Shown here: piece after piece, positions 1,616-42,252 of the stretch
Position numbering within the stretch: position 1 is the stretch's first letter
Layout: each line of letters opens with the position of its first letter
Assembly (NCBI GenBank): GCA_963706575.1
Contig: CAVPNL010000009.1
Coordinates: forward strand, 224,001-288,000
Origin: an uncultured delta proteobacterium
GTDB taxonomy: Bacteria; Desulfobacterota; Desulfobacteria; Desulfobacterales; JAHEIW01
Direction of reading: 5' to 3'
Length of the DNA: 64,000 nt
Program-made: the position numbers and the translations under genes
Notes under the pieces: model-generated
Databases searched by the model: none
Told to the model about the DNA's origin: nothing
What the model saw: the letters and a program-made list of their open reading frames with translations, nothing else

Positions 1616-1712
1616 GAAAATTCCAAATTACAAAACACAAATATCAAACAAATCACAATGACCCAAATTCAAAATATTTAACTTTTGGTCATTGATAAAT
1701 TGAAATTTTGGT
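1616..1712. repeat. degenerate inverted-arm repeat of tandem CAAAT/CAAA-rich units
   Basis: Left arm 'ttccaaattacaaaacacaaatatcaaacaaatcacaatgacccaaattcaaa'; right arm 'ttttggtcattgataaattgaaattttgg'. Lies between convergent genes. Confidence 0.55.
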
Positions 1713-1729
1713 TTTCCAGGTAGTACCAC

Positions 1730-2182
1730 TCAAATAACCTTCAGCAACTTTTCGATACTTTTGCGGCGTTCCGAAATTACAAATGATTTCGGTGCTGCAA
1801 AAATCTCTTCCGACATCTCCAGCAATGCATTTCGGGCAGCCATAATATCGGCCTCTCTGGGTAGAAAAAATACGACCCTGGCGAACGAATAAAAGGGTAC
1901 CAGGCGATAGCCTGCATTGAGCATGGATGACAGTTTGCGATATTCATCTGCTGCCTGTTCCAATTTCTCCTGATCAATAGCCTGTCCCGCCGCTTCCCCG
2001 GAGCGCTCTTCAGAAGATGCAAGCTTAAAAACATGTGAATAATGAATAAGCTTGAAAGCAATCTCGGCGATGACGCGCTTGAGCTCCTGCACAGGGTCGA
2101 TGACAATTTTAACAATGATCTCGCCTAAAACATAGATAATCACCCCGGCCAGAATAATATAAAATACGAGTGCGATTTCCAT
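1730..2182 (-). CDS. hypothetical membrane protein (single N-terminal TM)
   Basis: 150-aa ORF, ATG at 2182 with GGAG RBS, hydrophobic N-terminus followed by a helical domain. Confidence 0.7.
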   Translation of the reverse strand: MEIALVFYIILAGVIIYVLGEIIVKIVIDPVQELKRVIAEIAFKLIHYSHVFKLASSEERSGEAAGQAIDQEKLEQAADEYRKLSSMLNAGYRLVPFYSFARVVFFLPREADIMAARNALLEMSEEIFAAPKSFVISERRKSIEKLLKVI

Positions 2183-2371
2183 GATCTTTTCTCCGTCAAT
2201 GATCTCAAAAAACCCCAATTCTCAATTAGAGAAATGGGACTTTAAAATTAGCCCATTTTGTCACCTTTCGGCACGGATTTAATTCTGATTAATATTGAAC
2301 AGTTATCATGGGTTGTGTTTTTAAGTCAACAGCATTGAAATAACATGTTGTTGGTCAGCCATAAAGCGTTT

Positions 2372-2722
2372 TTAGAAATTAAATACTTTGCCTTCTGCGG
2401 CAAGATCAATCAAATGGGGTCCGCCGTCCAGGGCCATATTTGAAAAAAAGTTTGACTCGTCTACCTGACGAGCTTTGGCACACGGAATTCAGACGCCAAT
2501 GGGGACTTCGTTTTCAACCAGATACGGCAAATACTCATTGGGGGTATCACCGGTCGGCGTTTTCGTATCAAAATCTCTGGTTGAATCCGCCCACAGGACA
2601 CCATCATCAATAAAAAACAGGTTAACGTCATGCCCTTTTGAATGCGCAATTTGAGCAAATTGAAAACAGCGAGTTGCTGCCTGGTTGTCATCTCGGCTTA
2701 GCACGAACAGAAAATTCGCCAT
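2372..2722 (-). CDS. DsrE/DsrF-like (sulfur-relay) selenoprotein; UGA at 2489-2491 read as Sec (UxxC motif)
   Basis: DsrE-type N-terminus 'GHDVNLFFIDDGV'. The frame continues through TGA as PIGV-U-IPCAKARQVDESNFFSNMALDGGPHLIDLAAEGKVFNF-TAA (116 aa). A SECIS-like hairpin follows the UGA; AGGAGG RBS. Confidence 0.88.
2455..2473 (-). promoter_or_regulatory. bacterial SECIS element candidate
   Basis: Minus-strand GCUCGUC-AGGUA-GACGAGU stem-loop starts 15 nt after the UGA and has a G-containing apical loop. Confidence 0.8.
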
Positions 2723-2880
2723 CACAAACCTCCTTTCTTTTGAGCAAAATTAAGCGCTTAATGTATTCTTCTTTGAAGGAAGATTTATCAGAATTCACTT
2801 AAGATTTTCAACCGAAAAGATAAGAAGAAATGCGTAGCGTAAAAGGCGCAGAGGGCATTAACTTGAAAACATCTCAATTT

Positions 2881-3051
2881 TTAGAAATGCATAAAATCAT
2901 TGGCGTCCAGCCATATTTCCCATGAGTCGTCGCTTTCCGCCATGAATTGTCCTCTGGGAACCACGATCTGTCTTTTTCCGTCATGACCTGGCAAGGATGA
3001 TTCTATGCGTTTCAGAAGGGAGATTTGCTTTAAAATTTTAATAGGGAACAA
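2881..3051 (-). CDS. possible small ORF or gene fragment (56 aa)
   Basis: TTG..TAA frame LFPIKILKQISLLKRIESSLPGHDGKRQIVVPRGQFMAESDDSWEIWLDANDFMHF; no clear RBS. Confidence 0.25.
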   Translation of the reverse strand: MFPIKILKQISLLKRIESSLPGHDGKRQIVVPRGQFMAESDDSWEIWLDANDFMHF

Positions 3052-3285
3052 GGTGCGCTATTTTTTTAAGGATAATCTCAGGGTAATTACAGATTATTTA
3101 TTTTAGCAGTTGAAATTTAGCCGGATAGTCTTACTATGATAAAAACAGAAAATTTCAGAATTGAAAACTTTTTTAAAAGCATTATCTTTCGGGGTCTTAA
3201 TTTAATTAATATTATAGAATCAATACCGTCAATCTCAATCGAACACCCGACCTATATATCTTTATAGATAGAGAAATGGAGGTTA

Positions 3286-3675
3286 ATGATGAACAATCAA
3301 ATCATAAAGCTTTTTGTGGTAATTCTGTCAGCTATTTTTCTGCTCAGCTCGCCGGCGTTAGGCGGCGGCAAGGCCAAGGGCAAAAATAAAACCCAACCGC
3401 CCGGCTGGGAGCAGGGCGAGAAGACCGGCTGGAAAGGCGAAGATACGCCTCCCGGGTTAACCGAAGAGAAAATGGAGAAGAAACAAAAATCCCGAATGAA
3501 GGGCGATGAGGCCAAGGCAGAAGCGGAAGGTGAAAAAGCTAAACAGGGGACCGAACTGCAAGAGGAAAAAACAGAACAGGAAGCTGAGATAGAGAAAGAG
3601 AAAAAGAAACAAGAAGCGGAGTTAAAAAAAGAAAAGAAAAGAATAAAATCTAACTCGAAGAAGAAAAATGGGTAG
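3286..3675 (+). CDS. exported, highly charged (K/E-rich) hypothetical protein with PPGW/PPGL motifs
   Basis: GGAGG RBS, signal-peptide-like N-terminus, low-complexity K/E tail. Confidence 0.75.
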   Translation: MMNNQIIKLFVVILSAIFLLSSPALGGGKAKGKNKTQPPGWEQGEKTGWKGEDTPPGLTEEKMEKKQKSRMKGDEAKAEAEGEKAKQGTELQEEKTEQEAEIEKEKKKQEAELKKEKKRIKSNSKKKNG

Positions 3676-3869
3676 AAGGGTTTCATGCCCACGCTGCCGA
3701 TGGGCTGGATTTCTAAAAGGCTGGTCCTGTTTAAAAACGCCAGAGATAAACCGGGATTCATATTAAGCCCTTCTGCCAGCGATGCAGTTGGTTCGCCTCC
3801 TACGAAAAAACAGGGATAATCGGATTTCGTTGCGAATCCCTGTGCGAGTCTGAGAATTTGAAAAAATGC

Positions 3870-3898
3870 TTGACATGCTACAGAGTAGCACTTATATA
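3870..3898 (+). promoter_or_regulatory. sigma70-like promoter with a palindrome in the spacer
   Basis: TTGACA-N17-TATATA; the spacer contains TGCTAC-aga-GTAGCA. No downstream CDS on this strand. Confidence 0.55.
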
Positions 3899-3903
3899 TA
3901 AAT

Positions 3904-4005
3904 TTCAGAGTTGAAAGACTCTAAGCATTATTATACCTCCAAGCTTTTTTCTTTTCCATTCTATGAAAGGGCGGTTCATACCTCCGTGAGCCGCCTTTTT
4001 CATTT
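3904..4005 (+). ncRNA. candidate ~100-nt sRNA with two AUACCUCC (anti-SD) motifs
   Basis: 5' GAAA-tetraloop hairpin (3907-3922), ATACCTCC at 3933-3940, and a 3' terminator-like hairpin 3963-4003 whose loop is ACCTCC, followed by a U-run. Confidence 0.5.
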
Positions 4006-4018
4006 AATCGGTAATTAT

Positions 4019-4127
4019 TAGAACCTATCTCAAAAATAGCAGATCACATCTCCCGCTTCAGTGGGGCCCTTGCGCCTGATCTGAGGTTTTGAAACCACTT
4101 CTATATGTATTTTTAAGGTAGGTTCTA
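4019..4127. mobile_element. MITE-like element (type-1 ends) enclosing a type-2 MITE right end
   Basis: TIRs TAGAACCTATCTCAAAAATA / TATTTTTAAGGTAGGTTCTA. The internal 'cctgatctgaggttttgaaaccacttcta' is identical to the end of the 62583 copy. Confidence 0.7.
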
Positions 4128-4144
4128 CTGATTTTGGTGCGGCT

Positions 4145-5116
4145 TCATTGAATCTTACGTCTCGAATCATTGAATTCACGGTTGCTGGTTTGTATTGTGT
4201 CCGGGGTGCGGGATTCAGTCTTTTTAGGAATTTCCGGCAGCAGTTCTTCTATGATTTGCGTGCGCTTTAAAGGGGAAAGGTCGCGTTCGAGCGGTTTTAC
4301 TTTTTTGAGCAAATCTTCATCTTGCTGTACGCGCTGCCAAAATGTGAGCATGGCCCTGGGGGAATACTTTGAGCGATCCATAATCAGAATCGCGATCATT
4401 GCTGCCTCGCGTTCTTCTTCTGCACTGTATTCACGGTCCAGTGAATCCAAATCCGCCAGCTCAACATAGCTCCATTTCATCCAACCCTGGCCGCTAATCA
4501 CAACTGCTCCCTGGGAGGCCGTCATAATGGCGATACTGGTAGCCATTTCAGCCACATTAAAGAAAATATCAGTCCACAGCGTAAATTGTACGGGATACGT
4601 ATGCCGGGCCAACACATGGGCAATTTCACAGGCCATCAGCGCGGCGATTTCATCCTCGTTTTCGGCGACATCCAGAAAACCGGACCATACAAAAATGTAG
4701 TTTCCATGAACAGCACGAACATCGACCGTGTTGGGATCGTCAAGGAGATAAATATGCCAGGGCAGGTGATCGGCTTCTGCAGCTTGTATCAGATGATCGA
4801 GAATGGTTACCAGCCGGTCATAGCGTTTCGGATTGGCATCCAATCCATAATCGTCACACAAATCCTCATATAATTTTTTTCCGTATTCGGCTTCTCCCGG
4901 GGCCAGTGCATCTATTTTGGGGATTGTACCCGGTTCGATGATTCGGGGTTTAACCGTGCAAGCGTTACCAGAAAAAAGAATCCCGGCGGAAATCAATACC
5001 GTAAATGCGAAACGGGATGCCAAATTAGCCAGGCCATGTAGTGGTGGCACGAAGGTCCTTCCGATCTTAATCGGTTGCGATTGCAATCTTAGACGGGCAA
5101 AAAGAGCCGATTTCAA
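4145..5116 (-). CDS. M48-family (BepA/LoiP-like) metallopeptidase homolog with an altered zinc motif, probable lipoprotein
   Basis: M48 context 'ENEDEIAALMACEIAHVLARH' and 'YSAEEEREA'; HExxH appears as CEIAH; Cys after a hydrophobic stretch. Start codon uncertain. Confidence 0.75.
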   Translation of the reverse strand: MKSALFARLRLQSQPIKIGRTFVPPLHGLANLASRFAFTVLISAGILFSGNACTVKPRIIEPGTIPKIDALAPGEAEYGKKLYEDLCDDYGLDANPKRYDRLVTILDHLIQAAEADHLPWHIYLLDDPNTVDVRAVHGNYIFVWSGFLDVAENEDEIAALMACEIAHVLARHTYPVQFTLWTDIFFNVAEMATSIAIMTASQGAVVISGQGWMKWSYVELADLDSLDREYSAEEEREAAMIAILIMDRSKYSPRAMLTFWQRVQQDEDLLKKVKPLERDLSPLKRTQIIEELLPEIPKKTESRTPDTIQTSNREFNDSRRKIQ

Positions 5117-5326
5117 ACCACTTCAGTAATTCAGCCGTCGTCCATCAAAATAATCTTCTGATTCAGATACGTTTCTGTAACACAGGCCCGGATCGATAGA
5201 AAGCATGAAATAAAATTCAGATTTTCATTAAAGTTTTCCCCATTTTTTGCCGATTAAATAAGATAACATAATCCATAGCTTACGTTCTGATCGTCACCAA
5301 TCCCCTTATTCGAGGAGAGTGATATT

Positions 5327-5986: not shown

Positions 5987-6059
5987 CGGCCGCGTTAACG
6001 GGCAGGTTCTGCCCGTCAATTTCCGGGAAATAATTAAACGGATTTCTTAAATCCGTCTC

Positions 6060-9993: not shown

Positions 9994-11724
9994 ATGCCTG
10001 TCCATAACACCGATATCGCCGACATTTTTGAGGAGATCGCTGATTTCCTGGAGATCGAAGGGGAAAATCCCTTTCGCATCCGGGCCTATCGCAATGCGGC
10101 CCGTACGGTCAGAGGGCTGGGATCGGAATTGAAAGATATGCTGGCTGCAGGTGAAGATCTAACAAAACTGCCGGGCATCGGTAAAGAGCTGGCTGCCAAG
10201 ATTTGTGAAATACTGGAAACCGGCACGGCCAAAGCGCTGATCAAACTTCAGCAGCGCATTCCCAAAACGGTTATCGAAATGTTAAAACTGCCCAACCTGG
10301 GTCCCAAACGCGTGCGGATTTTATACCAGGATCTAAAAATAAAAAACCTTAAACAGCTATCTAAAGCTGCCCGCAAAGGGCGCATCCGCGCCCTCGAGGG
10401 CTTCGGTGAAAAGACCGAAACGGCCATTGTTGAAGCCATTGAAGCCCGGGCTCAAAAAGAAAAACGCTATAAGATTGCAGCGGTCAAGCCGACCGTCGAC
10501 AGCCTTGTTGATTTTCTGAAAAAGGTGTCCGGCGTCATCGATGTGGTGGCGGCCGGCAGTTACCGGCGCTCCCGGGAAACCGTGGGCGACCTGGATATTC
10601 TGGTCACGGCCCGTAAAAGCAGCCCGGTGATGAAGCGGTTACTGGAATATGATGCGGTCGCCAGGGTGTTGTCCCGCGGCGCCACCCGCTCCAGCGTGGT
10701 CCTGCGGTCCGGCCTGCAGGTTGATTTACGTTTGGTGGCACAATCCAGCTTCGGCGCTGCCCTACAATATTTTACCGGAAGTAAAGACCATAATATTGCC
10801 ATCCGCCGCCTGGGGCAGCAGCGGGGTTTAAAGATTAATGAATACGGGGTGTTCCGGTTTGAAAAACAGGTGGCCGGGCGGACAGAGGCTTCCGTTTATC
10901 GAGGCGTGGATTTGCCTTACATCCCGCCGGAGTTACGGGAGAATCGCGGTGAAATAGAGGCTGCCGGAGATAATCGGCTGCCCGAACTGGTTGAAATCAA
11001 AGACCTCAAAGGTGATTTACATGCTCACACCTTTGCCAGCGATGGGCGAAACAGCATCGAAGAGATGGCGCTGGCTGCCAAAAAGCACGGCTTAAAATAC
11101 ATTGCCGTTACAGAACATTCCGATCGACTCAAGGTCGCCGGCGGTCTGGATCCGCCGCAATTGATGCAGCAGATCGATGAGATTGAGCGTCTCAATGACC
11201 GTTTAAAAGGCATTCGGATTCTAAAAGGCCTTGAAGTTGAAATCCTGGAGGACGGCACCCTGGATTTGCCGGATGCGGTTCTGGCGCGGCTGGATCTGGT
11301 GGTGGGAACGGTTCACAGTTATTTCAATTTGCCGCTTGAAAAACAGACCGAGCGTATTATGCGTGCCATGGATCATCGTTATTTTAGCATGCTGGCCCAT
11401 CCCACCGGCCGCCTGATCGATGAGCGCGAGCCCTATCAGGTCGATATGACCCGGATTATCCATAAAGCCAGGGACCGCGGCTGTTTCCTTGAGCTCAATT
11501 CCAATCCGCGACGCCTGGACCTTTATGATATTTACTGTCAGGTCGCCAGGGAGGAAGGGGTTCTGGTATCGATCAATTCCGATGCCCACAGCATAAACGA
11601 TTTTAAATATCTGGCCTTCGGTGTGGGTCAGGCCCGACGTGGCTGGCTGGAAAAAGACGATGTGCTCAACACCCGGTCCCTGGCGCAGCTGCGCAAGCTG
11701 CTCAAGCAAACCATGGGTTCCTAA
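9994..11724 (+). CDS. polX: DNA polymerase X / PHP 3'-5' exonuclease
   Basis: 'GENPFRIRAY', 'GSYRR', catalytic 'GDLDIL' and 'VDLR', 'YFTGSK'; PHP motifs HAHT, TEH, AHP, NSDAH. Confidence 0.96.
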   Translation: MPVHNTDIADIFEEIADFLEIEGENPFRIRAYRNAARTVRGLGSELKDMLAAGEDLTKLPGIGKELAAKICEILETGTAKALIKLQQRIPKTVIEMLKLPNLGPKRVRILYQDLKIKNLKQLSKAARKGRIRALEGFGEKTETAIVEAIEARAQKEKRYKIAAVKPTVDSLVDFLKKVSGVIDVVAAGSYRRSRETVGDLDILVTARKSSPVMKRLLEYDAVARVLSRGATRSSVVLRSGLQVDLRLVAQSSFGAALQYFTGSKDHNIAIRRLGQQRGLKINEYGVFRFEKQVAGRTEASVYRGVDLPYIPPELRENRGEIEAAGDNRLPELVEIKDLKGDLHAHTFASDGRNSIEEMALAAKKHGLKYIAVTEHSDRLKVAGGLDPPQLMQQIDEIERLNDRLKGIRILKGLEVEILEDGTLDLPDAVLARLDLVVGTVHSYFNLPLEKQTERIMRAMDHRYFSMLAHPTGRLIDEREPYQVDMTRIIHKARDRGCFLELNSNPRRLDLYDIYCQVAREEGVLVSINSDAHSINDFKYLAFGVGQARRGWLEKDDVLNTRSLAQLRKLLKQTMGS

Positions 11725-11900
11725 GGTTCAACGGTTCAGGGTTCAGAGGTTCGATCCACAGATTACGCAGATTATCGCAGATTTGTGGGTTGATAAAAAA
11801 TCGAAGTTAAATGGTCAATTAGTTGATTCGTTAAATAGTTTAAAACGTAATAAATCTTTTGACGAATTGACTATTCAACTATTTGATCAATCAACCATTT
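11724..11900 (+). repeat. composite repeat element, left copy of a ~165-bp inverted pair
   Basis: GGTTCAG heptamers, CAGATTACG nonamers and a TTGATTCG/TTAAATAG octamer hairpin. Its reverse complement is at 13873-14038. Confidence 0.85.
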
Positions 11901-11968: not shown

Positions 11969-12433
11969 ATGATTGACGCTATTAGCTTAAAAATACTGAA
12001 AATATTGCAGGAAAAAGCGCGGATTCCCAATGTGGAGGTGGCCCGGCAGGTAGGGATGGCGCCATCGGCGGTGCTGGAACGAATCCGCAAGCTCGAAAAA
12101 CAGGGTTTTATCGACGGCTATGAGGTCCGGCTGAACCCGAAACGATTTGCCAAAAGCCTGGTAGCATTTGTGACGGTGAAATTAAAAAAACTGGGCGAGG
12201 AAATTAAGGTCGGGGAAACGCTGTCCGACATACCCGAGGTCCAGGAAGTTCATTACGTGGCGGGGGAAGACGCCTTTCTGGTTAAAATCCGGGCGGCCGA
12301 CACCGAAGCGCTCAGCCGCCTGACCCGGGATAAAATCGCCTCCATCGGGGCGGTGAAATCCACCCAAACGGCGATTGCACTGTCAACCTATAAGGAGACG
12401 GCCAGGATTCCGATTGAAATTGTAAGTGCCTAA
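11969..12433 (+). CDS. Lrp/AsnC family transcriptional regulator
   Basis: HTH 'EVARQVGMAPSAVLERIRKLE'; RAM domain 'EVHYVAGEDAFLVK'. Confidence 0.95.
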   Translation: MIDAISLKILKILQEKARIPNVEVARQVGMAPSAVLERIRKLEKQGFIDGYEVRLNPKRFAKSLVAFVTVKLKKLGEEIKVGETLSDIPEVQEVHYVAGEDAFLVKIRAADTEALSRLTRDKIASIGAVKSTQTAIALSTYKETARIPIEIVSA

Positions 12434-12582
12434 AATGACTAAAGTGAGCTAAAGTGCCTAAAATTTTGGTGTCGCTCGCGCAGCGCAGGCGCTTGCGCCG
12501 CGTGTCGCTCCATCTTTTTTATGTTTAAATGACAGAATTCCTTAACTTTAGTCACTTTAGTTCACTTCTTACTTTAGGCACT
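12424..12582. repeat. inverted-arm element of tandem TAAAGTG(N2-3) units
   Basis: aagtgcctaaaatgactaaagtgagctaaagtgcctaaa ... actttagtcactttagttcacttcttactttaggcact. It overlaps the lrp stop codon; related copies are at 26710 and 34911. Confidence 0.8.
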
Positions 12583-12626
12583 AAGCATAATATTCCAACT
12601 TGTATGACACCAGGAAAGGGTGAAAC

Positions 12627-13850
12627 ATGATCAAAATTAACGAAAACTATTTGAAACTGCAGGCGTCGTATCTATTTTCGGAAATCAGAAGGCGAACCGA
12701 TGAATTTCAGGAGAAACATCCGGACAAGGAGATCATCAAGCTCGGCATCGGGGACGTTACCCGGCCCCTGCCGCAAGCCTGTATCGCGGCCTTTCACCGC
12801 GCCGTGGATGAAATGGCCGATGACGCCACCTTTCGCGGATATGGCCCCGAGCAGGGATACGAATTCCTGCGGGAAAATATTGCCAAAGTTGATTTCCAGG
12901 ACCGGGGTGCGGATATTTCCGCCAGCGAGGTCTTTGTAAGTGACGGGGCCAAGTGTGACACCGGCAATATCCAGGAAATTTTCGCAAGCGACATCCGCAT
13001 CGCCATTCCCGATCCGGTTTATCCGGTCTATCTGGACACCAATGTAATGGCCGGCCGCACCGGATCATTTGGTGACAGCCGTTATGAAGGGCTCACCTAT
13101 CTGGAAAGCACCCGGGAAAACGGCTTTATCCCGGATCTGCCCGAGGAAAATGTTGACCTGATCTACCTGTGCTTTCCCAACAACCCCACCGGGGCCACCA
13201 TCACCCAATCGCAGCTTCAGGCCTGGGTGGACTTTGCCAGGGAAAAAAGGGCCCTGATTCTTTATGATGCCGCTTACGAGTCCTTTATTCAGGATCCTGA
13301 TCTGCCCAAATCGATATTTGAGATCGAGGGCGCCCGGGAAGTGGCCATTGAATTTAGAAGCTTTTCCAAAACGGCCGGATTTACCGGGACCCGCTGTGCC
13401 TATACGGTCGTGCCGACCTCCTGCACAGCTTATACCGCCAACGGCGAAGCCCATTCCGTCCATGATTTATGGTTTCGGCGTCAGTCCACCAAGTTCAACG
13501 CGGTTTCTTATCCGGTCCAGAGAGCGGCTGCGGCCATATACAGCGATGAGGGCCGGGCGCAGGCCAGGGCCCTGATTAAATATTATCTTAAAAACGCAGC
13601 GCTGATCCGAAAGGAAATGGAAGCCCTCGGATATGAATGCGTGGGCGGGGAAAACTCTCCCTATATCTGGATTTATGGCAAAACCGATTCCTGGAAATTT
13701 TTTAACTTGCTTCTGGAAAAAGCCGGTGTGGTCTGCACCCCGGGTGCCGGTTTTGGCAAATGCGGAGAAGGATTCATTCGTATCAGCGCATTCAACAACT
13801 ACGAAAATGTTCAACTCGCAATGCAAAAAATCAAGCAGGCGCTCAGCTGA
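12627..13850 (+). CDS. dapL: LL-diaminopimelate aminotransferase
   Basis: 'YLFSEI', 'LGIGDVT', 'GYGPEQGY', 'SDGAKCD', 'CFPNNPTG', '[13 protein letters not shown]'. Confidence 0.97.
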
Positions 13851-13872
13851 AAATTTCATTAGCCTTGCATAG

Positions 13873-14038
13873 CTAATTGGTTAAACAGTTGATTCGTTGA
13901 ATGGTCAATTAGTCAAAGGATTTATTTCGTTTTAAACTATTTAACGAATCAACGACTTGACCATTTAACTTTACTTTTTATCAACTGAAAAAATCTGTGA
14001 TAATCTGCGTAATCTGCGGATGAAACCCTGAACCTTGA
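13873..14038 (-). repeat. composite repeat element, right (inverted) copy
   Basis: Reverse complement 'aaggttcagggtttcatccgcagattacgcagattatcacagatt..gttgataaaaa..aagttaaatggtcaa..gttgattcgttaaatagtttaaaacg..' aligns with 11724-11900. Confidence 0.85.
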
Positions 14039-14053
14039 GCGGAGTGATGAACG

Positions 14054-18802: not shown

Positions 18803-18896
18803 TAAAACCTATCTCAAAAATAGTAAATCATGCCTCCCGCTTCCGCGGGACAACGCTGCCATTGGGTATTAGATGCATTTTTGAGATAGGTTTTTA
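18803..18896. mobile_element. short MITE-like element (type-1 ends) whose terminal TA is part of the TAA stop of the IolN-like gene
   Basis: TAAAACCTATCTCAAAAAT ... ATTTTTGAGATAGGTTTTTA. Confidence 0.75.
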
Positions 18897-21514: not shown

Positions 21515-21573
21515 CTTATCATCACCTTAGAAGTGATTTCAAAAAAATGTTACAAAAGTCGTAATTAATATGG

Positions 21574-21676
21574 TTTCAGGTGTCAGGTGTCGGGTGTCAG
21601 CATATAGATGACCGGGGGAGAATTCGATGCGTCTCGATTGCCCTGATACCTGACACCCGAAACCTGACACCTGAAA
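21574..21676. repeat. inverted-arm element of tandem GGTGTCA heptamers
   Basis: tttcaggtgtcaggtgtcgggtgtcag ... ctgatacctgacacccgaaacctgacacctgaaa. Confidence 0.85.
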
Positions 21677-21714
21677 TATGAACGTGTTTCGTAAATTACT
21701 TGCGGGACACAACA

Positions 21715-22788
21715 CTAGGCATTGGGGTGCACAATAACCTTCACTGCCCCTCCGATTCTTTCAACAAAGGTCTTAAATGCTTCATCGATTTGATCCAGCG
21801 GAAAAGAATGTGTGGCCAGCTGCTTTAATGATATGCGCCCCTGGGAAAGCATCGACACCGCCCGTGAGCAATTGGCCCAGCCTTCGCCCCGAATCGAAAA
21901 AATATGGATGTTGCGCGAGCCCATGGTGGAAAAATTGGCAGAGACCGGCTTTTCAGGGTATCCGACCAGCAGGATTTTGCCCATGCGTTTTGACATTTCA
22001 ATGGCGGTTTGAATGCCCTGGTCGGAACCGGATGATTCAATTACCAGGTCCGCTCCGATCCCATCGGTTTCATCTCTGACCACCTGAACGGCATCTTCAT
22101 TTTTGACATTAATCAGTCGGTCGGCCCCCATTTTTTTGCCCATCTCGAGACGGCTGTCGCGGGTTCCGGACAAAAATATTTTTTTGGCACACAGGGCCCT
22201 GGCCACCCCCACCGATACCAGCCCCAGGGGTCCCGGCCCGATTACCGCCACATTGTCTCCCACCACATAGCCGCCGGTGGTTTGAAAACCATAGAGCACA
22301 CAACCTAAATTGGTGATCAGCGCAGCTTCTTTGAACTCGATGCTATCCGGAATCTTGTGCACGGTGTTGATATGATTCAGCGCATACTGGGCAAAACCGC
22401 CATTGGTGGTAAAGCCATTGGCGCGATGACCTCTTTTGAGATTGCCGTAATTCAGACAGGCGGTATAGTTGCCCAGCCGGCAGTTTCGGCAGCGGCCGCA
22501 GCCCAGGCTGGCCTCAACCGCGACCCGATCCCCGACTTGAAGCTCGTCTACGGTATCGCCCACCGCCGCGATGGTTCCGGCATATTCGTGGCCGATAATA
22601 AAGGATCCATAGGGCGGCTGTGCTTCCCAGGGCTCCTCGATGAGAGCCACATCGCTGCCGCATACGGCGGTAGCCTCGACTTTGACCAAAACGTCTTGCG
22701 GTCCCGGCCGGGGGGTGGGCATCTCTTTCACCTCCAGTTGATTTTTGCCCATCAGCACAACGGCCTTCATTTTATCTGGGATTGCCAT
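21715..22788 (-). CDS. zinc-dependent medium-chain alcohol/polyol dehydrogenase
   Basis: 'CGSD', 'GHE', structural Zn 'CGRCRNCRLGNYTAC', 'GPGPLG'. Confidence 0.93.
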   Translation of the reverse strand: MAIPDKMKAVVLMGKNQLEVKEMPTPRPGPQDVLVKVEATAVCGSDVALIEEPWEAQPPYGSFIIGHEYAGTIAAVGDTVDELQVGDRVAVEASLGCGRCRNCRLGNYTACLNYGNLKRGHRANGFTTNGGFAQYALNHINTVHKIPDSIEFKEAALITNLGCVLYGFQTTGGYVVGDNVAVIGPGPLGLVSVGVARALCAKKIFLSGTRDSRLEMGKKMGADRLINVKNEDAVQVVRDETDGIGADLVIESSGSDQGIQTAIEMSKRMGKILLVGYPEKPVSANFSTMGSRNIHIFSIRGEGWANCSRAVSMLSQGRISLKQLATHSFPLDQIDEAFKTFVERIGGAVKVIVHPNA

Positions 22789-23489: not shown

Positions 23490-24362
23490 ATGCAAGTCAC
23501 CGATCACATCCATGCCTTAAAAATACCGTTTAAGCTGCGCGTGGGCCCGGACAAAACGGTGGACCGACTTGTTTTTGCCTATCTCATCTATGGCGATCAA
23601 ATATGTCTGATTGACAGTGGCGTTGCCGGATCCGAGGCGATAATTCTGGAATATATCAAACAGGCCGGCCGGGATCCTCAGGACATTGCCCGGATCATCT
23701 TTACCCATTCTCATGCAGATCATATCGGTGGTAGCCGCGCGCTTAAAAAGCAAACCGGTTGTAAATTGGCCGCCCATATCGATGCCAAACCCTGGATTGA
23801 AAATGTGGACCAGCAGTATGCGGAACGACCCATCGGGAATTTTTATGATCTCGTCGCGGGCTCGGTCGAAATTGATTCAGAGTTAAAAGACGGCGATCTG
23901 GTGGATCTGGGCGACGGCAGAACACTCGAAATATTCCACACCCCCGGTCATTCAAAAGGCTCTATCTCTCTTTTGTATAATAAAGACAGGGCGATATTCA
24001 GCGGGGATGCCGTTCCCAAGCCAGGTACCGTGCCGATTTATGAAGATGTGGCAACTTCAATTGAGTCCATAAAGAGATTAAAACAAATTGAAGATCTGGA
24101 GATCCTGATGGCTTCCTGGGATGATCCCCAATTCGGTGCCAGCGTATACCCGTCCATGGATGCCGGATTGCAATGGTTTCAACAGATCCACGAAGCGGTT
24201 TTGGCCGAAACGGCCGGATCGGATGCTTTAGACCCAGAGGACCTCTGCGCCCGGGTTTTAAAACGGCTGGGTTTTCCGGAAATCCCCCTGGTTCCCATTG
24301 TGGTCACCTCAATCGGGGCCCATTTGAAACTGCTTGACCGGCAAGATTTGATAGCGGATTGA
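23490..24362 (+). CDS. MBL-fold metallo-hydrolase
   Basis: 'THSHADHIGG', 'TPGHS', 'SGDA'. Confidence 0.92.
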   Translation: MQVTDHIHALKIPFKLRVGPDKTVDRLVFAYLIYGDQICLIDSGVAGSEAIILEYIKQAGRDPQDIARIIFTHSHADHIGGSRALKKQTGCKLAAHIDAKPWIENVDQQYAERPIGNFYDLVAGSVEIDSELKDGDLVDLGDGRTLEIFHTPGHSKGSISLLYNKDRAIFSGDAVPKPGTVPIYEDVATSIESIKRLKQIEDLEILMASWDDPQFGASVYPSMDAGLQWFQQIHEAVLAETAGSDALDPEDLCARVLKRLGFPEIPLVPIVVTSIGAHLKLLDRQDLIAD

Positions 24363-24976: not shown

Positions 24977-25036
24977 GTTATCGGTTATCTGTTATTTGAA
25001 CCAAAAACCTGACCAATAACCAATAACGGATAACTA
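24977..25036. repeat. inverted-arm element of tandem GTTAT(N2) heptamers
   Basis: gttatcggttatctgttatt ... caataaccaataacggataac, directly after a TAG stop. Confidence 0.7.
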
Positions 25037-25057
25037 AAAAGTGTCTCCAGACACTTT

Positions 25058-26623: not shown

Positions 26624-26669
26624 GGTTTTGCCCTCCAATGTTGAAATAGAGTATATTTATTTTAAGATT

Positions 26670-26706
26670 TAGAAGTGGTTTTAAAACCTCAGATCAGGTT
26701 CAAGGG
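26670..26706. mobile_element. truncated type-2 MITE end
   Basis: TAGAAGTGGTTTTAAAACCTCAGATCAGGTTCAAGGG matches the start of the 55528 copy. Confidence 0.75.
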
Positions 26707-26709
26707 TTA

Positions 26710-26929
26710 AAAGTGCCTAAAGTGATCTAAAATGCTAAAGTAAACTAAAGCTTGGGCCTCACGCAAAGCCGCAAAATAACACGCGCGCAAAGACCCGGAG
26801 GTTTTTTTATTGTTTAAACTAAAATTCTTTGCGGCTTAGCGGCTTTGCGTGAACAAGAAATTAAAATAGACAGAATTCCACAACTTTAGTCACTTTAGAT
26901 CACTTTAAATCCCGCCCCAGGCGGGACTC
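26710..26929. repeat. nested repeats: TAAAGTG-arm element enclosing a CGCAAAG-arm element, followed by a CCCGCC/GGCGGG hairpin
   Basis: aagtgcctaaagtgatctaa.. [cctcacgcaaagccgcaaa..tctttgcggcttagcggctttgcgtga] ..gacagaattccacaactttagtcactttagatcacttta. Confidence 0.8.
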
Positions 26930-26935
26930 ACTTAT

Positions 26936-28321
26936 TTAGGGAAATATCTTCCCCGGATTCAGAATGCCGTTGGGATCAAACAATGTCTTCACGCGTTTCA
27001 TCCACTCCAGGCTGTTCCCATGTTCGGCCAACATGTATTTACGCTTTCCCAGGCCGACGCCGTGCTCGCCGGTGGCGGTCCCTCCCAGATCCAGGGTTTT
27101 GTAAACCAGGCGCTCCGAGATTTGGTGGATCAGATCCCATTGCTCGCGGTTGTTCTTTTGGCCGGCAATGTTTAAATGCACGTTGCCATTTCCGGCATGG
27201 CTGATGGTGTAACAGGTTAAATCGGTTGCGCCAAGTTCTTCACGGCTGGCGGCAATCAACTCCGGATAGGCGGTAATAGGAACGGCGACATCCATCACCA
27301 GAATACCGCAATCCGGGTGTTTGCGGATAATGATTTCACCCAGGGCATGCCGGGCTTTGAAGATACGATCGCGTTCCGATCGGCCCACGCCGGTTTCAAA
27401 CACCTGGCAGCCCTCACTTTTACAGATCTCCTCGGCCATCTCCAGAACCTCGGTCAACTGGCTGCTAGTGGTCCCGTGAAATTCCATGATAAGGGTCGGT
27501 GAGACCGTCAATTTTAAATTTTCCTCCGCGTTCATCAACTCGATGCACTCGGGGCCCAGCAGTTCGAGAGCCGCCGGATTGAGCCCGGAGCGCATGATCT
27601 CGAACACGACCTTGCTGGCAGCCTCTACCGAGGGGAAGGTGGCAACGGCCGCTGAAAATTCGACCGGCAACCCGACCAGGCGTACCGTGGCACCAACGAC
27701 AATTCCCAGGGTTCCCTCGGAGCCGACAAAAAGACGGATGAGGTCATATCCCGATGATGTTTTGCTGGCCTGATTGCCGATCTCGATGATCTCACCATTG
27801 GCCAAAACCACCGACAGACGCAGAACATAATCTTTGGTGGAACCGTAATACACCGTGCGGGTCCCGCTGGCGTTATTGGCAATCATGCCGCCAAGTGTGG
27901 CGCGGGCGCCCGGGTCCGGCGGGAAGAATAATCCCGTGTGACGGAGCTTTTCATTCAGATCCTGGTAGATCACCCCCGGCTCCACATCGGCTTGAAACGC
28001 CTCCGGGCGAATATCAAGGATCCGGTTCATCTGTGCAAAATCCAGTACAATGCCGCCTTCAACCGGGATCGGATTGCCTTCCAGCGAAGACCCTGAACCC
28101 CAGCCGACAATCGGAATCCGGTTGTCGTTTGCATATTTTACGACCGCGGCCACCTCTTTCGCTGTCTGTGGCCATATCACCGCTTCGGGGCGAATGGCGG
28201 GATGCTGCGACTGATCTTTGGCGTGCAGATCGAGAACGGATTCGCCCGTGGACAGGCGGTCATCGGGCACAATGGTTTTAAGGTAGCTGATATGGGATGT
28301 CTCGATCGAATTGAATTTCAA
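26936..28321 (-). CDS. FAD-binding D-2-hydroxyacid oxidoreductase (GlcD/D-lactate dehydrogenase family)
   Basis: 'GSGSSLEG', 'FFPPDPG', 'GGMIANNASG', 'GSEGTLG', 'HAGNGNVH', 'TGEHGVG', 'LNPGKIF'. TTG start assumed. Confidence 0.93.
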   Translation of the reverse strand: MKFNSIETSHISYLKTIVPDDRLSTGESVLDLHAKDQSQHPAIRPEAVIWPQTAKEVAAVVKYANDNRIPIVGWGSGSSLEGNPIPVEGGIVLDFAQMNRILDIRPEAFQADVEPGVIYQDLNEKLRHTGLFFPPDPGARATLGGMIANNASGTRTVYYGSTKDYVLRLSVVLANGEIIEIGNQASKTSSGYDLIRLFVGSEGTLGIVVGATVRLVGLPVEFSAAVATFPSVEAASKVVFEIMRSGLNPAALELLGPECIELMNAEENLKLTVSPTLIMEFHGTTSSQLTEVLEMAEEICKSEGCQVFETGVGRSERDRIFKARHALGEIIIRKHPDCGILVMDVAVPITAYPELIAASREELGATDLTCYTISHAGNGNVHLNIAGQKNNREQWDLIHQISERLVYKTLDLGGTATGEHGVGLGKRKYMLAEHGNSLEWMKRVKTLFDPNGILNPGKIFP

Positions 28322-30974: not shown

Positions 30975-31749
30975 ATGAACAGAGATTGGAGCAGTTTTGG
31001 CCTCGAGGATCAAATTGCCATTGTTACCGGCGCTTCCCAGGGGATCGGACGGACACTGGCCATTGCGCTGGCGCAGGCCGGCGCAGATGTCGCCCTGGTC
31101 AGCCGCACCCGATCCGACCTGGAGGCGGTTGCCAAAGAAATCGAAGCCGCCGGCCGCAACGCATTGGTGATTGCCCGCCGATATTCAAGATGTGTCCCAG
31201 ATTCGAAAGACAGTTGATGCGGTTCACACGACCTTTGGCAGAATTGATATTTTGATTAACAATGCGGCCTGGACCGCAACGGTAGAAGCACTGGAGGCCA
31301 CCGAAGAAGAATGGGACCAGACCCTGGATACCAGCTTAAAGGCCATTTTTTTTGCCAGCCAGGCGGTGGCCAAAATTATGATTCAACAGGGTCGCGGCAA
31401 GATCGTCAACATCGGATCAACCCTGGGCCGGACCGCCTTTGCCAAACGCTCGGTTTATGGTGCGGCCAAGGCCGGCGTTCACCAGCTGACCCGTGTGCTG
31501 GCCCTGGAGTGGTCTGCCAAAGGCATAAGCGTCAACGCCGTTGCCCCCTGTATTACGGAAACGCCGACCCGTCGGGAATTGTTTGAACGTCCGGGTTACA
31601 AGGAATGGGCCACCGGACAAATGCTTCCGATCGGACGCTGGGCCCAGCCCGAAGACCTCATCGGTGCTACTTTATTTTTGTGCAGTTCTTTATCCGACAT
31701 GGTCGTCGGCCATGTTTTAATGGTGGACGGCGGGTGGACCATCCATTAG
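30975..31749 (+). CDS. SDR-family oxidoreductase (gluconate 5-DH/KduD-like), one +1 frameshift near 31173
   Basis: 'TGASQGIG' in the first ORF; 'NNA', 'YGAAK', 'VDGG' in the second. Confidence 0.88.
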
Positions 31750-31892
31750 AACCCATCTCAAAAATGTCTTTTGGCCCAATATCTTTGTTGGTGCCTCGTT
31801 TCTAATCCTCGACATACCACGGTATGCCTGCGGTTAGAAACTCGGCCCCGCCGCGATCTTGAACCAAAATCCTATTTTTGAGAAGGGTTCTA
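31747..31892. mobile_element. 146-bp MITE-like element (type-1 ends) whose terminal TA is part of the SDR TAG stop
   Basis: TAGAACCCATCTCAAAAAT ... ATTTTTGAGAAGGGTTCTA, with central hairpin CATACC-AC-GGTATG. Confidence 0.8.
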
Positions 31893-34910: not shown

Positions 34911-35045
34911 AAATTTTAGGCCTCACGCAAAGACGCAAAGGCGCCAAGGGTTTTTAGATTATGATTCTTTGCGACTTTGCGGCTTTGCGTGAGCAACAAT
35001 AAAAATGGATTAAATTCCGTTTTAACTTTAGTCACTCTGATTTAC
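34911..35045. repeat. CGCAAAG-arm element inside a degenerate TAAAGTG element
   Basis: cctcacgcaaagacgcaaaggcgccaag..tctttgcgactttgcggctttgcgtgag..aattcc..aactttagtcact. Confidence 0.8.
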
Positions 35046-35420: not shown

Positions 35421-35450
35421 TCTTTGCGAGCTTAGCGGCTTTGCGTGAGG
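35421..35450. repeat. lone right arm of the CGCAAAG element
   Basis: tctttgcgagcttagcggctttgcgtgagg is inverse-complementary to 34920-34948. Confidence 0.7.
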
Positions 35451-37774: not shown

Positions 37775-37855
37775 GAAAATAGATAAACAGTTTATATTTG
37801 TGCAATCTCATTCTGGCGGCGAAAACTAAAAATTTTTAGACTCATTTTACAAACC

Positions 37856-37934
37856 AACCACGAATACACGAAATTCGGGAAGCACAATAATTTATCAGTT
37901 ATTTTTCGTGTTTTTGTTCTTTCGTGCTTTCGTG
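37856..37934. repeat. inverted-arm element of CACGAA units
   Basis: ccacgaatacacgaaa ... tttcgtgttttt..tttcgtgctttcgtg. Confidence 0.7.
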
Positions 37935-37964
37935 ATGAGAAAGTCTTTGATCTTGGAGGAAATC

Positions 37965-39002: not shown

Positions 39003-39120
39003 TCCGGTTCCGTTTTGCATTCATGCGGGAGGCATTTTTTCAAATGAAAGGAGGTGTGCATAGGACGGTAAAGAGAAACCAACCAAAATTCCAACCACGA
39101 TAGCATCAAGGAGGTGGGAT

Positions 39121-40131
39121 ATGAGAAAACAACGTCATTTCTCTAAGATTTTCTGGGGATTTCTTATCTTTCTTTTTGTCATTGCGTTTACAGCAAATCT
39201 TGCATCCGCCGCAGACCAATACATCCGTCTGGGGTGCGGTGGACCGGGCGGGTCCTGGTTCAAGATGGTCGGCGGACTTTCATCGCTTTATAACAAAAAA
39301 ATTGAAAATGTTAATGTGAGCGCCGTATCGTCCGGCGGCTCCGTGGCACTCATGCGGCTGATTCGAAAGGGCGAATTGGAAGCCACCTTTACCCATACGC
39401 TGACGGCTTATGACAGCTGGAACGGCGTGGGCAAGTTTGAAAAAGAGGGGTCCTGGAAGGGCATCCGCATGATGACCGGCATGTATGAGAGCGTGCATCA
39501 CTTTGTCGTGCGTGAGGACAGCGGCATCAAAAGCATGGGTGACCTGGTCGGCAAGCGCGTCAACGTGGGTTCACCCGGCAGCGGATCTGCCGCCAATTCG
39601 ACGATTATTCTTGAGGGCCTGGGCCTCTATGACCAGGTAAAAATAAACAACTTGAGCTTCGGTGACGCGGGCCGCGCCGTGGGGGATGGGCAAATGGATG
39701 CTTTGGGGATGAGCGGCGCACCCATGGCCGCCGTGGTCACGTTGGAGGCCTCCCGCAAAATTCGCGTGCTGGGATTCAGCGATGCGGAGTTTAAAAAAAT
39801 ATTTGCCAAATCGCCATTTTACTACAAGACCACCCTGCCTGCCGGCGTTTACAAGTCATGGAACCAGCCGACGGATCTTATCGCCTTTCAGGTTTACTGG
39901 ATCGCCCATGAAAAATTTGATCCCGAAGCGGTCTACAAGATGCTGAAGGTGGCCTATGATCCCGGCAACAAGGAATACCTCAAAAGTGTTCACCGACAGT
40001 TTGCCGGCATGAGTGCGGCTTTGCAACCGATGAAAGGATTGGGGATACCCTTGCATCCCGGCGCCGTAAAATACTGGAAAGAAAAGGGCATGGACATTCC
40101 CGCGGAGCTGATCCCTCCGGAGATGAAGTAG
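39121..40131 (+). CDS. TAXI-family TRAP substrate-binding protein
   Basis: 'GGPGGSW', 'SSGGSV', 'GKRVNVGSPGSG', 'IPLHPGAVKYW'. Confidence 0.93.
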   Translation: MRKQRHFSKIFWGFLIFLFVIAFTANLASAADQYIRLGCGGPGGSWFKMVGGLSSLYNKKIENVNVSAVSSGGSVALMRLIRKGELEATFTHTLTAYDSWNGVGKFEKEGSWKGIRMMTGMYESVHHFVVREDSGIKSMGDLVGKRVNVGSPGSGSAANSTIILEGLGLYDQVKINNLSFGDAGRAVGDGQMDALGMSGAPMAAVVTLEASRKIRVLGFSDAEFKKIFAKSPFYYKTTLPAGVYKSWNQPTDLIAFQVYWIAHEKFDPEAVYKMLKVAYDPGNKEYLKSVHRQFAGMSAALQPMKGLGIPLHPGAVKYWKEKGMDIPAELIPPEMK

Positions 40132-40156
40132 CGTTAAATCGGTTCGCTCAAATTAA

Positions 40157-40210
40157 GGCACCGTTCATATCCTCCGCCAAAAAACAGGCGGCGGGATTTT
40201 GGACGGTGCC
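40157..40210 (+). terminator. stem-loop after the SBP gene (mRNA stabiliser/attenuator)
   Basis: GGCACCGTTC..CCGCC-aaaaaaca-GGCGG..GGACGGTGCC. Confidence 0.55.
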
Positions 40211-40246
40211 TGCTGATTTTTACAGATCGATAAAAGGGATGGTGGC

Positions 40247-42127
40247 ATGACGCAGGATACCAGCGGCGAGACCCGGGAACGCATGCGGCGATTGAGGGGA
40301 AGAACCGCCTGGGTCGCCAGCAGCATTGCTGCGGTGTTTTCGTTGTTTTATATCTACACCGCCGGTTTCGGATTGATCTCCACGGAGGTGCACCGGGGTT
40401 TGTACATCCTGTTTACCATGCTGCTTTGTTTTATACTCTACCCCGCGCGGAAAGCATCGCCGGCCAACCGGATATCCCTTATGGATGGAATCCTGTGTTT
40501 GCTTGTCTTGTTTGCGGTTATCTATTGGATTGTCGAATTTTCCGAATATGCCACCGAACGGGTTCGAAATCCCGTGCCGGCCGACATCGTCATGGGGATC
40601 ATTATTACCGTCCTTTCCCTGGAAGTGGCCCGTCGTACCATCAATTGGGTATTGCCCATCCTGGCCGCTGTATTTCTGCTGTATGCCTACTTTGGTCGTT
40701 TGGTGCCCGGAATCCTGGGTCATCCGGGCTTTTCCATCGTCAACATCGTGGAAAGCATCGGGTGTGATATGAGTGGGATTTATGGAATTGTTGCCAACAC
40801 CTATGCGACCTTTGTATTTCCGTTTATCATCTTCGCTTCTTTTCTAAAAGCTGCGGGCGCCGGAGACGCGATCGAAAATCTGGCGATGGCCATCGCCGGG
40901 GGAACCCGTGGAGGCCCCGCCAAAGTGGCCGTCGTGTCCAGCGGCATTATTGGTTCGATTACCGGCTCTTCGGCTGCCAATGCCGTGGCGACCGGGGCCT
41001 ATACCATCCCGTTAATGAAAAGGACAGGCTATAAAGCGCATGTGGCGGCGGGTGTAGAAGCGGCGGCATCCAGCGGCGGGCAGATGTTGCCACCGGTGAT
41101 GGGCGCCGGGGCATTTTTGCTGGCCACCTTTACCGAAACGGCCTATGTGGACATTATTAAAATTGCCGCCATTCCGGCTGTGCTATACTTTTTCTCCGTA
41201 GGCTGGATGGTGCATTTTATTGCCGGGCGCGAAGGGTTAAAAGGCTTACCCAAAGACCAACTCCCAAAGCTCAAAACCGTCATCCTGAAACAGGGTTACC
41301 TCCTGCTTCCGGTTGTGATCATATTGGTGCTTTTAATCGCCCGTTACTCTCCCCAAAAGGCCGCTTTCGGGGCCATCATCTGCACGATCGCCCTGAGTTA
41401 TGTCAAGAAAGAAACCCGTCTGGGTCCGCGTAAACTTTTAGATACCCTCATTATAGCTGCCAGAAATTCTCTGGTCGTTGGTGCGACAGCTGGCACCGTC
41501 GGTATTATTGTCGGAATAACCCTGATGGCCGGTATCGGAATAAAATTTTCGGCCCTCATACTGGGCTTTTCCCAGGGGCTGCTGCCGTTGACCATCATCT
41601 TAACGGCGCTTGCATCCTATATCATGGGTATGGGTTTAACGGTCACGGCTTCCTATGTGGTGGTGTCGGTACTGGCGGTCCCTGCAATGGTTGAACTGGC
41701 CGTGCCCGTCGTCGCAGCGCATCTGGTCGTTTTCTGGTACGTGGAGACCGGCCAGGTCACCCCACCGGTGGCGTTGGCCGCCTTTGCGGCTTCGGGGATT
41801 GCGCGCTGTGATCCCAACAAGGCCGGGTTTGCGGCGGTTCGGCTGGCGTCACCGCTGTTGATCACACCGGTTCTGTTTGTCTACACCCCGATATTGTTAA
41901 ATGGTCCGATGCCTGCGATTATCGAAACGGTCGTTAGCGCCACCGTTGGTTTTGTGGCATATGCCGGAATGATGCAGGGGTTCTGGTTTAGACGCACACC
42001 GCTATTGGAGCGAGCTATACTGGGGCTTGCCGCCGTGTGCCTGTTTATCCCCAGCATTTATACCGATCTTGTCGGACTTGCGATTCTTGGCGGAGTGACC
42101 GTGCTAAATCGCAAACATGCCGACTGA
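40247..42127 (+). CDS. TRAP transporter fused 4TM/12TM permease (TAXI type)
   Basis: 'GGPAKVAVVSS', 'GSSAANA', 'EAAASSGGQMLPPVMGAGAF', 'TPPVALAAFA'. Confidence 0.94.
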   Translation: MTQDTSGETRERMRRLRGRTAWVASSIAAVFSLFYIYTAGFGLISTEVHRGLYILFTMLLCFILYPARKASPANRISLMDGILCLLVLFAVIYWIVEFSEYATERVRNPVPADIVMGIIITVLSLEVARRTINWVLPILAAVFLLYAYFGRLVPGILGHPGFSIVNIVESIGCDMSGIYGIVANTYATFVFPFIIFASFLKAAGAGDAIENLAMAIAGGTRGGPAKVAVVSSGIIGSITGSSAANAVATGAYTIPLMKRTGYKAHVAAGVEAAASSGGQMLPPVMGAGAFLLATFTETAYVDIIKIAAIPAVLYFFSVGWMVHFIAGREGLKGLPKDQLPKLKTVILKQGYLLLPVVIILVLLIARYSPQKAAFGAIICTIALSYVKKETRLGPRKLLDTLIIAARNSLVVGATAGTVGIIVGITLMAGIGIKFSALILGFSQGLLPLTIILTALASYIMGMGLTVTASYVVVSVLAVPAMVELAVPVVAAHLVVFWYVETGQVTPPVALAAFAASGIARCDPNKAGFAAVRLASPLLITPVLFVYTPILLNGPMPAIIETVVSATVGFVAYAGMMQGFWFRRTPLLERAILGLAAVCLFIPSIYTDLVGLAILGGVTVLNRKHAD

Positions 42128-42160
42128 TTCAAAGGTTCAATGTACAAGGACTTGTTGGAT

Positions 42161-42252
42161 TCGTTTTATTAGTTTCATTGGTTGAATTGGTTGGTTTAAA
42201 CCGAACCAATTGAACGAATTAAACCAATCAAACCAATTAAACAAATATAACA
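42161..42252. repeat. inverted-arm element of ATTGGTT(N2)/AACCAAT nonamers
   Basis: attagtttcattggttgaattggttgg ... aaccaattgaacgaattaaaccaatcaaaccaattaaac. Confidence 0.75.

Follow-up and report, generated by a model that had tools for sequence, protein, structure and literature searches.

Tandem-word hairpins and matching small-gene cassettes in the intergenic spacers of an uncultured delta proteobacterium

The intergenic spacers of an uncultured delta proteobacterium of the Desulfobacterales carry hairpins whose left arm is a tandem array of a 7- to 10-nt word and whose right arm is an array of its reverse complement. Our data indicate that such arms also enclose small genes of two families, the four-helix-bundle family (TIGR02436) and the GxxExxY family (TIGR04256). 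We analysed a 64,000-nt stretch of assembly GCA_963706575.1 (C9:224001-288000, hereafter the window), whose gene content is ordinary metabolism and whose source, to judge by named records sharing one arm word and by run labels, is probably a sediment organism, and followed the hairpins through the whole genome (G000) and 22 related genomes, which are incomplete (68-97%). We found a pairing of words with protein clades, turnover between relatives, bursts of single families and nesting, and the sequences suggest that the hairpins are real non-autonomous palindromic mobile DNA. We tentatively favour, at a little short of an even chance, a two-part system like that of the repetitive extragenic palindromic (REP) doublets forming hairpins (REPIN) and their REP-associated tyrosine transposases (RAYT), in which the protein of the gene-bearing form, the cassette, would act in trans on the gene-less DNA hairpins.

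G000 is a 5.67-Mb assembly of 25 contigs, 92% complete with 6% contamination. Long near-duplicate matches of ~217 kb, 82-99.9% alike, join its contigs C16/C17/C21/C22, C19/C20/C6, C15/C23/C25 and C24/C6; the assembly thus mixes sister strains or species, and some counts below are slightly inflated. Using the arms of close pairs as seeds, and genes from a simple gene caller of our own, a genome-wide search gave 1,429 arms under 19 word labels, 25 of them inside long genes. The reversed genome gave 114 arms as a control, mostly ATTGGTT-type words, which we read as matches arising because the reverse of this word is a rotation of the same word. Tandem arrays of period 7, 8, 9 and 10 number 336, 110, 243 and 37, against 4, 4, 3 and 5 in an order-5 Markov simulation (726 against 16 in total). 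Array pairs less than 150 nt apart are inverted in 143 cases and direct in 5; from 800 nt to 6 kb the numbers are 89 and 92. Same-family pairs within 200 nt are left-then-right in 461 cases and right-then-left in none (one 6-mer family, the sole one without fixed polarity, was omitted from this parse), with 20 wider pairs (>200 nt) and 323 partnerless arms. Elements occupy 438 of the 3,260 spacers of at least 60 nt, and hairpins are scarcer between divergent genes (7% vs 14-17%).

The first-pass annotation of the window, made from the letters alone, had listed this architecture at a series of sites, and all of its arms were found where it had placed them. When the left arm was aligned with the reverse-complemented right arm for 12 pairs, nine were matched by none of 300 shuffles, and those at 24977, 37856 and 1616 by 1, 9 and 12. 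Nine of ten stretches in the window fold with z scores of -3.9 to -8.3; the exception is the element at 1616, whose fold is weak because its right arm is shortened relative to the two other copies. The genome has ~19 word families. The annotation was also right that this is not a single family of insertion sequences. The largest family is TAAARTG (119 complete copies, loops shared in 93 of 117), followed by ATTGGTT (87 complete copies). In some families the ends are fairly constant and copies have loops in common; variable ends and mixed arms are present as well. Gene-less copies exceed cassettes ~40:1, and their orientation to transcription is random (38:34, 24:20). The TAAARTG left arms supply stops in all frames in 87% of cases vs 32% when shuffled, a role that as a general one was ruled out by the 0-17% found in other large families. 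In their behaviour the arms resemble directional repeats of a word, and not a stem whose pairing is adjusted in each copy.

The words are linked to the small genes. G000 holds 8 four-helix-bundle and 4 GxxExxY genes, and 7 and 3 of these (10/12) are enclosed by inverted arrays of a word; two of the seven come from near-duplicate contigs. Across the genus, 65 of 92 four-helix-bundle genes (95 loci were taken, of which 3 gave no hit; matches that were weakest or fragmentary are not included) and 23 of 28 GxxExxY genes (after 2 contig-edge loci were dropped) are armed, while direct-repeat controls passed the cut-off at 6/29 and 4/28. A phylum-wide draw gave 25 armed genes of 29, with other words, against 8 for direct repeats and 2 for the reversed sequence. 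Arms flanking these genes, which the first-pass annotation had mentioned for other anaerobes, are thus seen here. The 92 four-helix-bundle genes of the genus form 27 clades at a 62% identity cut, and every armed clade has a single word type, which is kept at five sites in clade 1, at three in clade 2 and at two in each of clades 3, 6, 9 and 10. Word and protein distances are weakly correlated over 43 clade representatives (Mantel rho 0.13, p 0.002). For GxxExxY, clade, word and site coincide, for which descent alone suffices. Eight of the nine words in the window have a partner gene in the genus, the exception being ATTGGTT. The cassettes, unlike the gene-less copies, are aligned with the direction of the upstream gene (70:5, 25:0 and 24:1), which fits dependence on the host promoter and would still allow RNA to play a part.

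By profile the cargo families are PF05635, the intervening-sequence (IVS) protein, and PF13366. The four-helix-bundle family, which we take to be related to Avd, the nucleic-acid-binding protein of diversity-generating retroelements, has a solved relative by sequence (2RLD), and none was found by sequence for GxxExxY. Two further arrangements were noted: a 131-aa gene at C12:246428-247057 of G000 between two direct copies of a CACAGAG hairpin, placed much as a cassette between its sites, and, at two loci of another deltaproteobacterial genome (L195, L196), composite arms separating the small genes of an array, presumably toxin-antitoxin partners. A published table gives PF13366 as a family whose function is unknown and which has been transferred multiple times (PMC3424549), and a GxxExxY gene adjoining a reverse transcriptase was labelled cas4 by another tool (PMC8934634).

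The families burst in single lineages. Across the 22 genomes four words gave 2-249, 4-310, 1-128 and 2-136 matches (68- to 128-fold), and for three of the four the density is higher where the matching cassette is present (p 0.0025, 0.030, 0.0075 and 0.39; combined permutation 5e-5).

The elements are replaced at orthologous sites, as the first-pass idea of mobility would predict. The order polX-lrp-dapL-lysA is kept in the genus, and lrp-dapL-lysA also in one other family; the lrp-dapL spacer holds TAAARTG in 7 genomes, GCCCGTT in 4, a CACAGAC-type word in 5 and CACGAAG in 1, with two words in G002, and GGTTCAG in a genome from another family. The ends of lrp vary with the spacer element. We compared 11 sites, among the matches listed, at which a congener has a cassette and G000 does not. 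Nine carry a hairpin of another word in G000, one a related word, and one a mixed element in which the earlier right arm survives. The annotation had taken the window elements for empty forms; full forms do enclose the expected genes, but the gene-less ones are not simply cassettes with the gene removed. At one site near-duplicate contigs with flanks 94-99% alike have a GxxExxY cassette and an empty GTGTTTA hairpin, and at the next site a four-helix-bundle cassette and a Y1 transposase gene with REP-like repeats. Another near-duplicate pair (89-93%) has 8 nt against a 197-nt composite. The spacer of a nest at 26640-26935 of the window, 295 nt long here, measures 35 nt in G009, and a contig of run X2 has 23 letters in its place (joint 26633-26938). 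Element-free alleles as well as replacements are seen. Between near-duplicate contigs whole spacers are replaced, from gene end to gene start. The Y1 transposase gene (C19:5817-6095) lies in the spacer upstream of a gene that we take, from its sequence, to be mutL-like, and the four-helix-bundle cassette lies there at C6:747710 and C20:5958.

Nesting follows a clear grammar. Two-element spacers are nested in 15 of 19 cases, against 7.6 expected, and crossing was observed in none. Writing O for a left and C for a right arm, neighbouring arms of different families are OO in 53 cases, CC in 50, OC in 34 and CO in 4, so a right arm followed by the left arm of another family accounts for 4 of 141. 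The linkers differ, by eye, among the nests of ATTGGTT in GGTTCAG, which suggests several independent insertions, and some composites were copied whole. Conventional inverted-repeat elements, which nest with the hairpins, were also observed: those with TAGAA- ends lie at 4013-4133, 18804-18894, 31747-31892, 51540-51686, 62583-62787, 21528 and 26670 of the window, and genome-wide the conventional families have 212 and 258 ends plus a smaller one of 32, with no transposase seen between the ends.

We suggest the following scheme. The first part is the cassette, a four-helix-bundle or GxxExxY gene (the latter of the PD-(D/E)XK nuclease fold) between inverted arrays of a 7-10-nt word, which sits in a host operon, apparently uses the host promoter, keeps one word per protein clade and is mostly inherited at its site; now and then cassettes are gained, lost or displaced. 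The second part would be the gene-less arm-loop-arm hairpin, copied as DNA to tens or hundreds of spacers in either orientation, often entering the loops of existing hairpins and replacing earlier elements. Spread, nesting and replacement are seen in the comparisons, and the copying step is what they would imply. The word arrays might offer the matching cassette protein a series of sites to bind, and this protein would promote copying in trans. The hairpin could be cut by the GxxExxY nuclease or a host enzyme and then mended by templated host repair, and repair at a cut hairpin would yield replacement, nests, mixed left and right arms and nearby inverted copies such as that at 11736/13896.

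Several points weigh against this scheme. The abundance link comes from related, incomplete genomes and does not hold for GTRTTTN; among 12 off-target abundance tests, one also gave a low value (p 0.021). A partner gene of ATTGGTT was found neither in this genome nor in the genus, nor at 57 other loci up to a distance of 700 nt, and several families are abundant in this 92%-complete genome without a cassette of their own. One four-helix-bundle clade is armless at one site in 17 of the 22 genomes (C4:622300 in G000, and 16 congeners), and is possibly domesticated. Neither cargo protein is a known transposase, and no catalytic role is known for the four-helix-bundle proteins (PMC4990558). Joint travel of gene and arms would also pair words with clades, with no binding needed. 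We saw neither an exact empty site nor, by eye, a target duplication, and among the contigs of relatives compared there was no excised form; one joint skips a whole composite.

An alternative hypothesis, which we regard as somewhat unlikely, could be that the host alone copies the hairpins: replication would stall or break at them, the short words would seed template switching and gene conversion by which arms and whole spacers are copied, spacer alleles would be exchanged between relatives through the flanking genes, and the small genes would ride along as passengers, gene and arms diverging together by descent. The stretches 11736-11900 and 13875-14038 of the window are the same 165 nt inverted (137/165 match) ~2 kb apart. 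The latter type is common to G001, G013 and G018, and the former looks like a recent local copy because its type was unseen in the polX-lrp spacers of congeners; similar inverted pairs at C11 and C18, the variable ends, the mixed and 323 unpaired arms and the whole-spacer replacement likewise speak for host copying. So does the nesting of hairpins within conventional inverted-repeat elements, since they lie inside them in 38 cases and outside in 4. What host copying leaves unexplained is the fixed polarity, the own word of each family, the family-specific bursts and the density that tracks the cassette. Of 398 copies, 16 have their best match no more than 10 kb away, against 4.8 expected (reciprocal pairs counted twice); for the other 382 it is non-local.

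The first-pass annotation had also allowed for RNA-level elements. Such elements would be messenger-RNA versions of the IVS of 23S rRNA: once transcribed, their arms would pair, the stem would be processed by RNase III or the cassette protein, and copies would perhaps spread via an RNA intermediate. The Coxiella member of PF05635 is enclosed in a stem of 28 bp that RNase III cuts (PMC4990558), and here the cassettes follow the host transcript, the hairpins fold well and are rarer between divergent genes, and the genome has one reverse transcriptase gene. However, the sense strand has no excess of G.U over A.C mismatches (297:334 in gene-less copies; 27:32, 35:42 and 51:39 in cassettes). Own arms pair no better (0.465) than arms of different copies (0.479, a figure slightly raised by the choice of orientation), and orientation is random. 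Mismatches are strand-asymmetric in some families (GTGTTTA 57:11, GCATAGC 23:4, GGTTCAG 15:39), which may be inherited from one founder. A GTGTTTA bias to GC skew (19:3) came from one of 10 such tests and is given no weight here. No arms were found in the 23S gene of this genome (C4:131249-134293), and RNase P RNA shows no length change among 16 full-length matches. We consider RNA-level elements improbable. The single reverse transcriptase match lies at C4:301693-302349, ~10 kb from two Y1_Tnp matches.

Still less credible to us are ordinary MITEs (miniature inverted-repeat transposable elements) moved by conventional transposases of the DDE or HUH type, or elements that hitch-hike in such MITEs. 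The fairly fixed ends and shared loops of some families would suit them, and the genome has conventional inverted-repeat elements and 6 Y1_Tnp matches, the flanks of one of which (C19) were examined and hold REP-like repeats of another kind. Against them, the 20 wide pairs hold cassette genes, ordinary-looking gene blocks and other elements, with no transposase noticed among those annotated, which were some of the 20; target duplication is not evident by eye at 40 TAAARTG flanks; and just 38 of the 461 hairpins adjoin conventional ends, by which hitch-hiking was ruled out. The stable stems, mostly downstream of a gene, would suit ordinary terminators or other regulators that evolved in place. 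These are very improbable and largely refuted by U-tracts at either end of 60 of 461 hairpins (13%) against 7.8% of random spacer positions, by the 330 of 438 occupied spacers that lie between same-direction genes, and by sites at which the family changes or some alleles have no element.

The elements of the window are as follows (strand is given where one is assigned). At 1617..1715 lies a CAAAT-word element with a truncated right arm (z -0.42; 2 other copies), its word being that of four-helix-bundle clade 9 (arm of L142). Two unpaired left arms on the plus strand, GGTTCAG then CGCAGATT, span 11723..11784; GGTTCAG is the word of four-helix-bundle clade 7 and CGCAGATT that of a GxxExxY cassette (L082). 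The hairpin at 11806..11895, of the 8-mer GTTAAATG/GTTGATTC, has the word of four-helix-bundle clade 18 (z -5.2), and together with the preceding arms is an inverted copy of 13875-14038. That second copy comprises an 8-mer hairpin (13871-13970) followed by unpaired right arms, CGCAGATT at 13990-14020 and GGTTCAG at about 14022-14040, the last ending at the lysA ribosome site (13871..14040 in all). The annotation had entered arm pairs at 11724 and 13873; the arms are present, but GGTTCAG and CAGATTACG have only left arms at 11724-11784 and only right arms at 13990-14040. Between the copies lie the genes lrp and LL-diaminopimelate aminotransferase (11969..13850, plus strand), a conserved operon, and lrp-dapL as the cargo of the 11724/14040 arms was ruled out by the gene order conserved in the genus. 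In G017, G016 and G015 (L018, L019, L027) the polX-lrp spacer holds 2-3 kb of unrelated genes flanked by arm remnants, which makes it an insertion hot spot.

The TAAARTG element at 12424..12582 (word of four-helix-bundle clade 2; 36 matches covering at least 60%; z -6.1) supplies the last codons and the stop of lrp; a small GC-rich palindrome at 12476-12505, in the loop of a TAAARTG subfamily, is perhaps another nested element. A GGTGTCA hairpin (21571..21676; clade 1 word; z -8.3) sits between conventional inverted-repeat ends at about 21528 and 21700-21718, and a GTTATTC hairpin (24977..25037; clade 4 word; z -4.0) at the stop of a response regulator. The two words noted at 26710 and 26756 are both present, not as separate hairpins but as one nest (26710..26907) with TAAARTG arms outside and a CGCAAAG hairpin (26757-26852) inside. 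At 34922..35043 a CGCAAAG hairpin (34922-34993; z -6.3), whose word is that of a GxxExxY cassette in this genome, is followed by a TAAARTG right-arm remnant; of the TAAAGTG element placed at 34911, traces exist, merely a fragment and this remnant at about 35018-35043. There follow an unpaired CGCAAAG-family right arm (35421..35449), a CACGAAA hairpin (37858..37934; GxxExxY cassette word, C19:8585; 14 matches covering at least 60%; z -5.1) and a 9-mer ATTGGTT hairpin (42152..42252; z -5.0) behind a GGTTCAA left-arm remnant at the stop of a TRAP permease. No Rfam match and no tRNA was found in the window, and the metallo-beta-lactamase-fold protein at 23490-24362 is far under every beta-lactamase cut-off.

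Some elements do start in or at stop codons as described, namely at polX (11724, inside the stop), lrp (12433) and the response regulator (24976). The targeting of gene 3' ends drawn from this is not supported, since 114 of 332 lie within 10 nt of a stop against 109 expected under even placement in free spacer, a test with little power wherever an element takes up the whole spacer.

Several known systems resemble these elements. MITEs of DDE insertion sequences are short non-coding units with inverted ends and lineage-specific bursts, and the hairpins share all of this; they differ in their ragged ends made of repeated words, and a transposase with the same ends was not noticed among the 20 wide pairs (not all annotated; other genomes not searched). 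The attC sites of integrons keep their fold while the sequence varies and may overlap a stop codon, as here, but the flanking genes here are conserved core operons in fixed order rather than cassettes, and the arms are tandem words. Cyanobacterial short tandemly repeated repetitive (STRR) sequences are heptamer-type repeats. Related cases are the GGGAATC inverted pairs of Xanthomonas and GGGGA(C/T)T of Nostoc (Rehm et al. 2015, PMC4692102) and the TAACTGA repeats of Beggiatoaceae (MacGregor 2015, PMC4679880). Like ours they are intergenic tandem 7-mers of about four units, often in inverted pairs (70 in Xcc), and the inverted heptamer pairs of Xanthomonas fall within the present kind of element. 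Here periods 8-10 occur besides the 336 period-7 arrays, and the words turn over, whereas the available text gives the Xanthomonas repeats as stable between two species (83% shared). That text treats one word per genome, as G-quadruplex or regulator, and holds no link to an enclosed gene and no association with mobile elements.

The IVS of 23S rRNA, as the available text on Coxiella describes it (PMC4990558), has a PF05635 open reading frame (ORF) inside inverted ends, a patchy distribution and passage through the host transcript; the likeness is to the cassette forms only, none of which is in the window. Our elements lie in spacers of messenger RNA, not rRNA, their arms are word arrays and no RNA-pairing signature was found in them. 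REPINs, in the available text of Bertels and Rainey (2011, PMC3116915), are inverted doublets with a variable spacer in hundreds of extragenic copies, with leftover single arms; a genome may have several groups of them, and to each group belongs one single-copy gene that its repeat flanks. Our hairpins are likewise extragenic inverted doublets in high copy (461 vs 0; 25/1429 arms in long genes) with a partner gene flanked by the same repeat (10/12 cargo genes) and one word per clade in the genus. The differences are that the partner is a PF05635 or PF13366 protein, not an HUH (Y1) tyrosine transposase, that the arms are non-palindromic direct tandem 7-10-mers rather than palindromic REPs, and that ~19 families share one genome and nest in loops. 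We found no paper linking word arms with cargo genes in the literature searched, outside which lie most subscription papers and supplements.

More broadly, it is possible, if on the unlikely side, that the four-helix-bundle (S23p/Avd-like) and GxxExxY proteins are sequence-specific drivers of transposase-free mobile DNA and the source of heptamer repeats in many phyla and of ORF-bearing rRNA IVS. Each protein would read its own 7-10-nt word on both arms and send gene-less hairpins into the loops of other hairpins. Our analysis adds to the known repeats the pairing of one word with each clade, the abundance link, the replacement at the same site by other families and the nesting grammar, together with the negative tests of RNA pairing and stop-codon targeting. 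It ties together the excess of heptamer repeats, two large function-less small-protein families (TIGR02436/PF05635 and TIGR04256/PF13366) and the ORF-bearing rRNA IVS. With ~19 word families in one genome, several of them with a partner gene, matched and mismatched binding and mobilisation are directly testable. Elements in 438 of 3,260 spacers, and the altered gene ends, mean that the operons of this organism are shaped by them whatever the mover.

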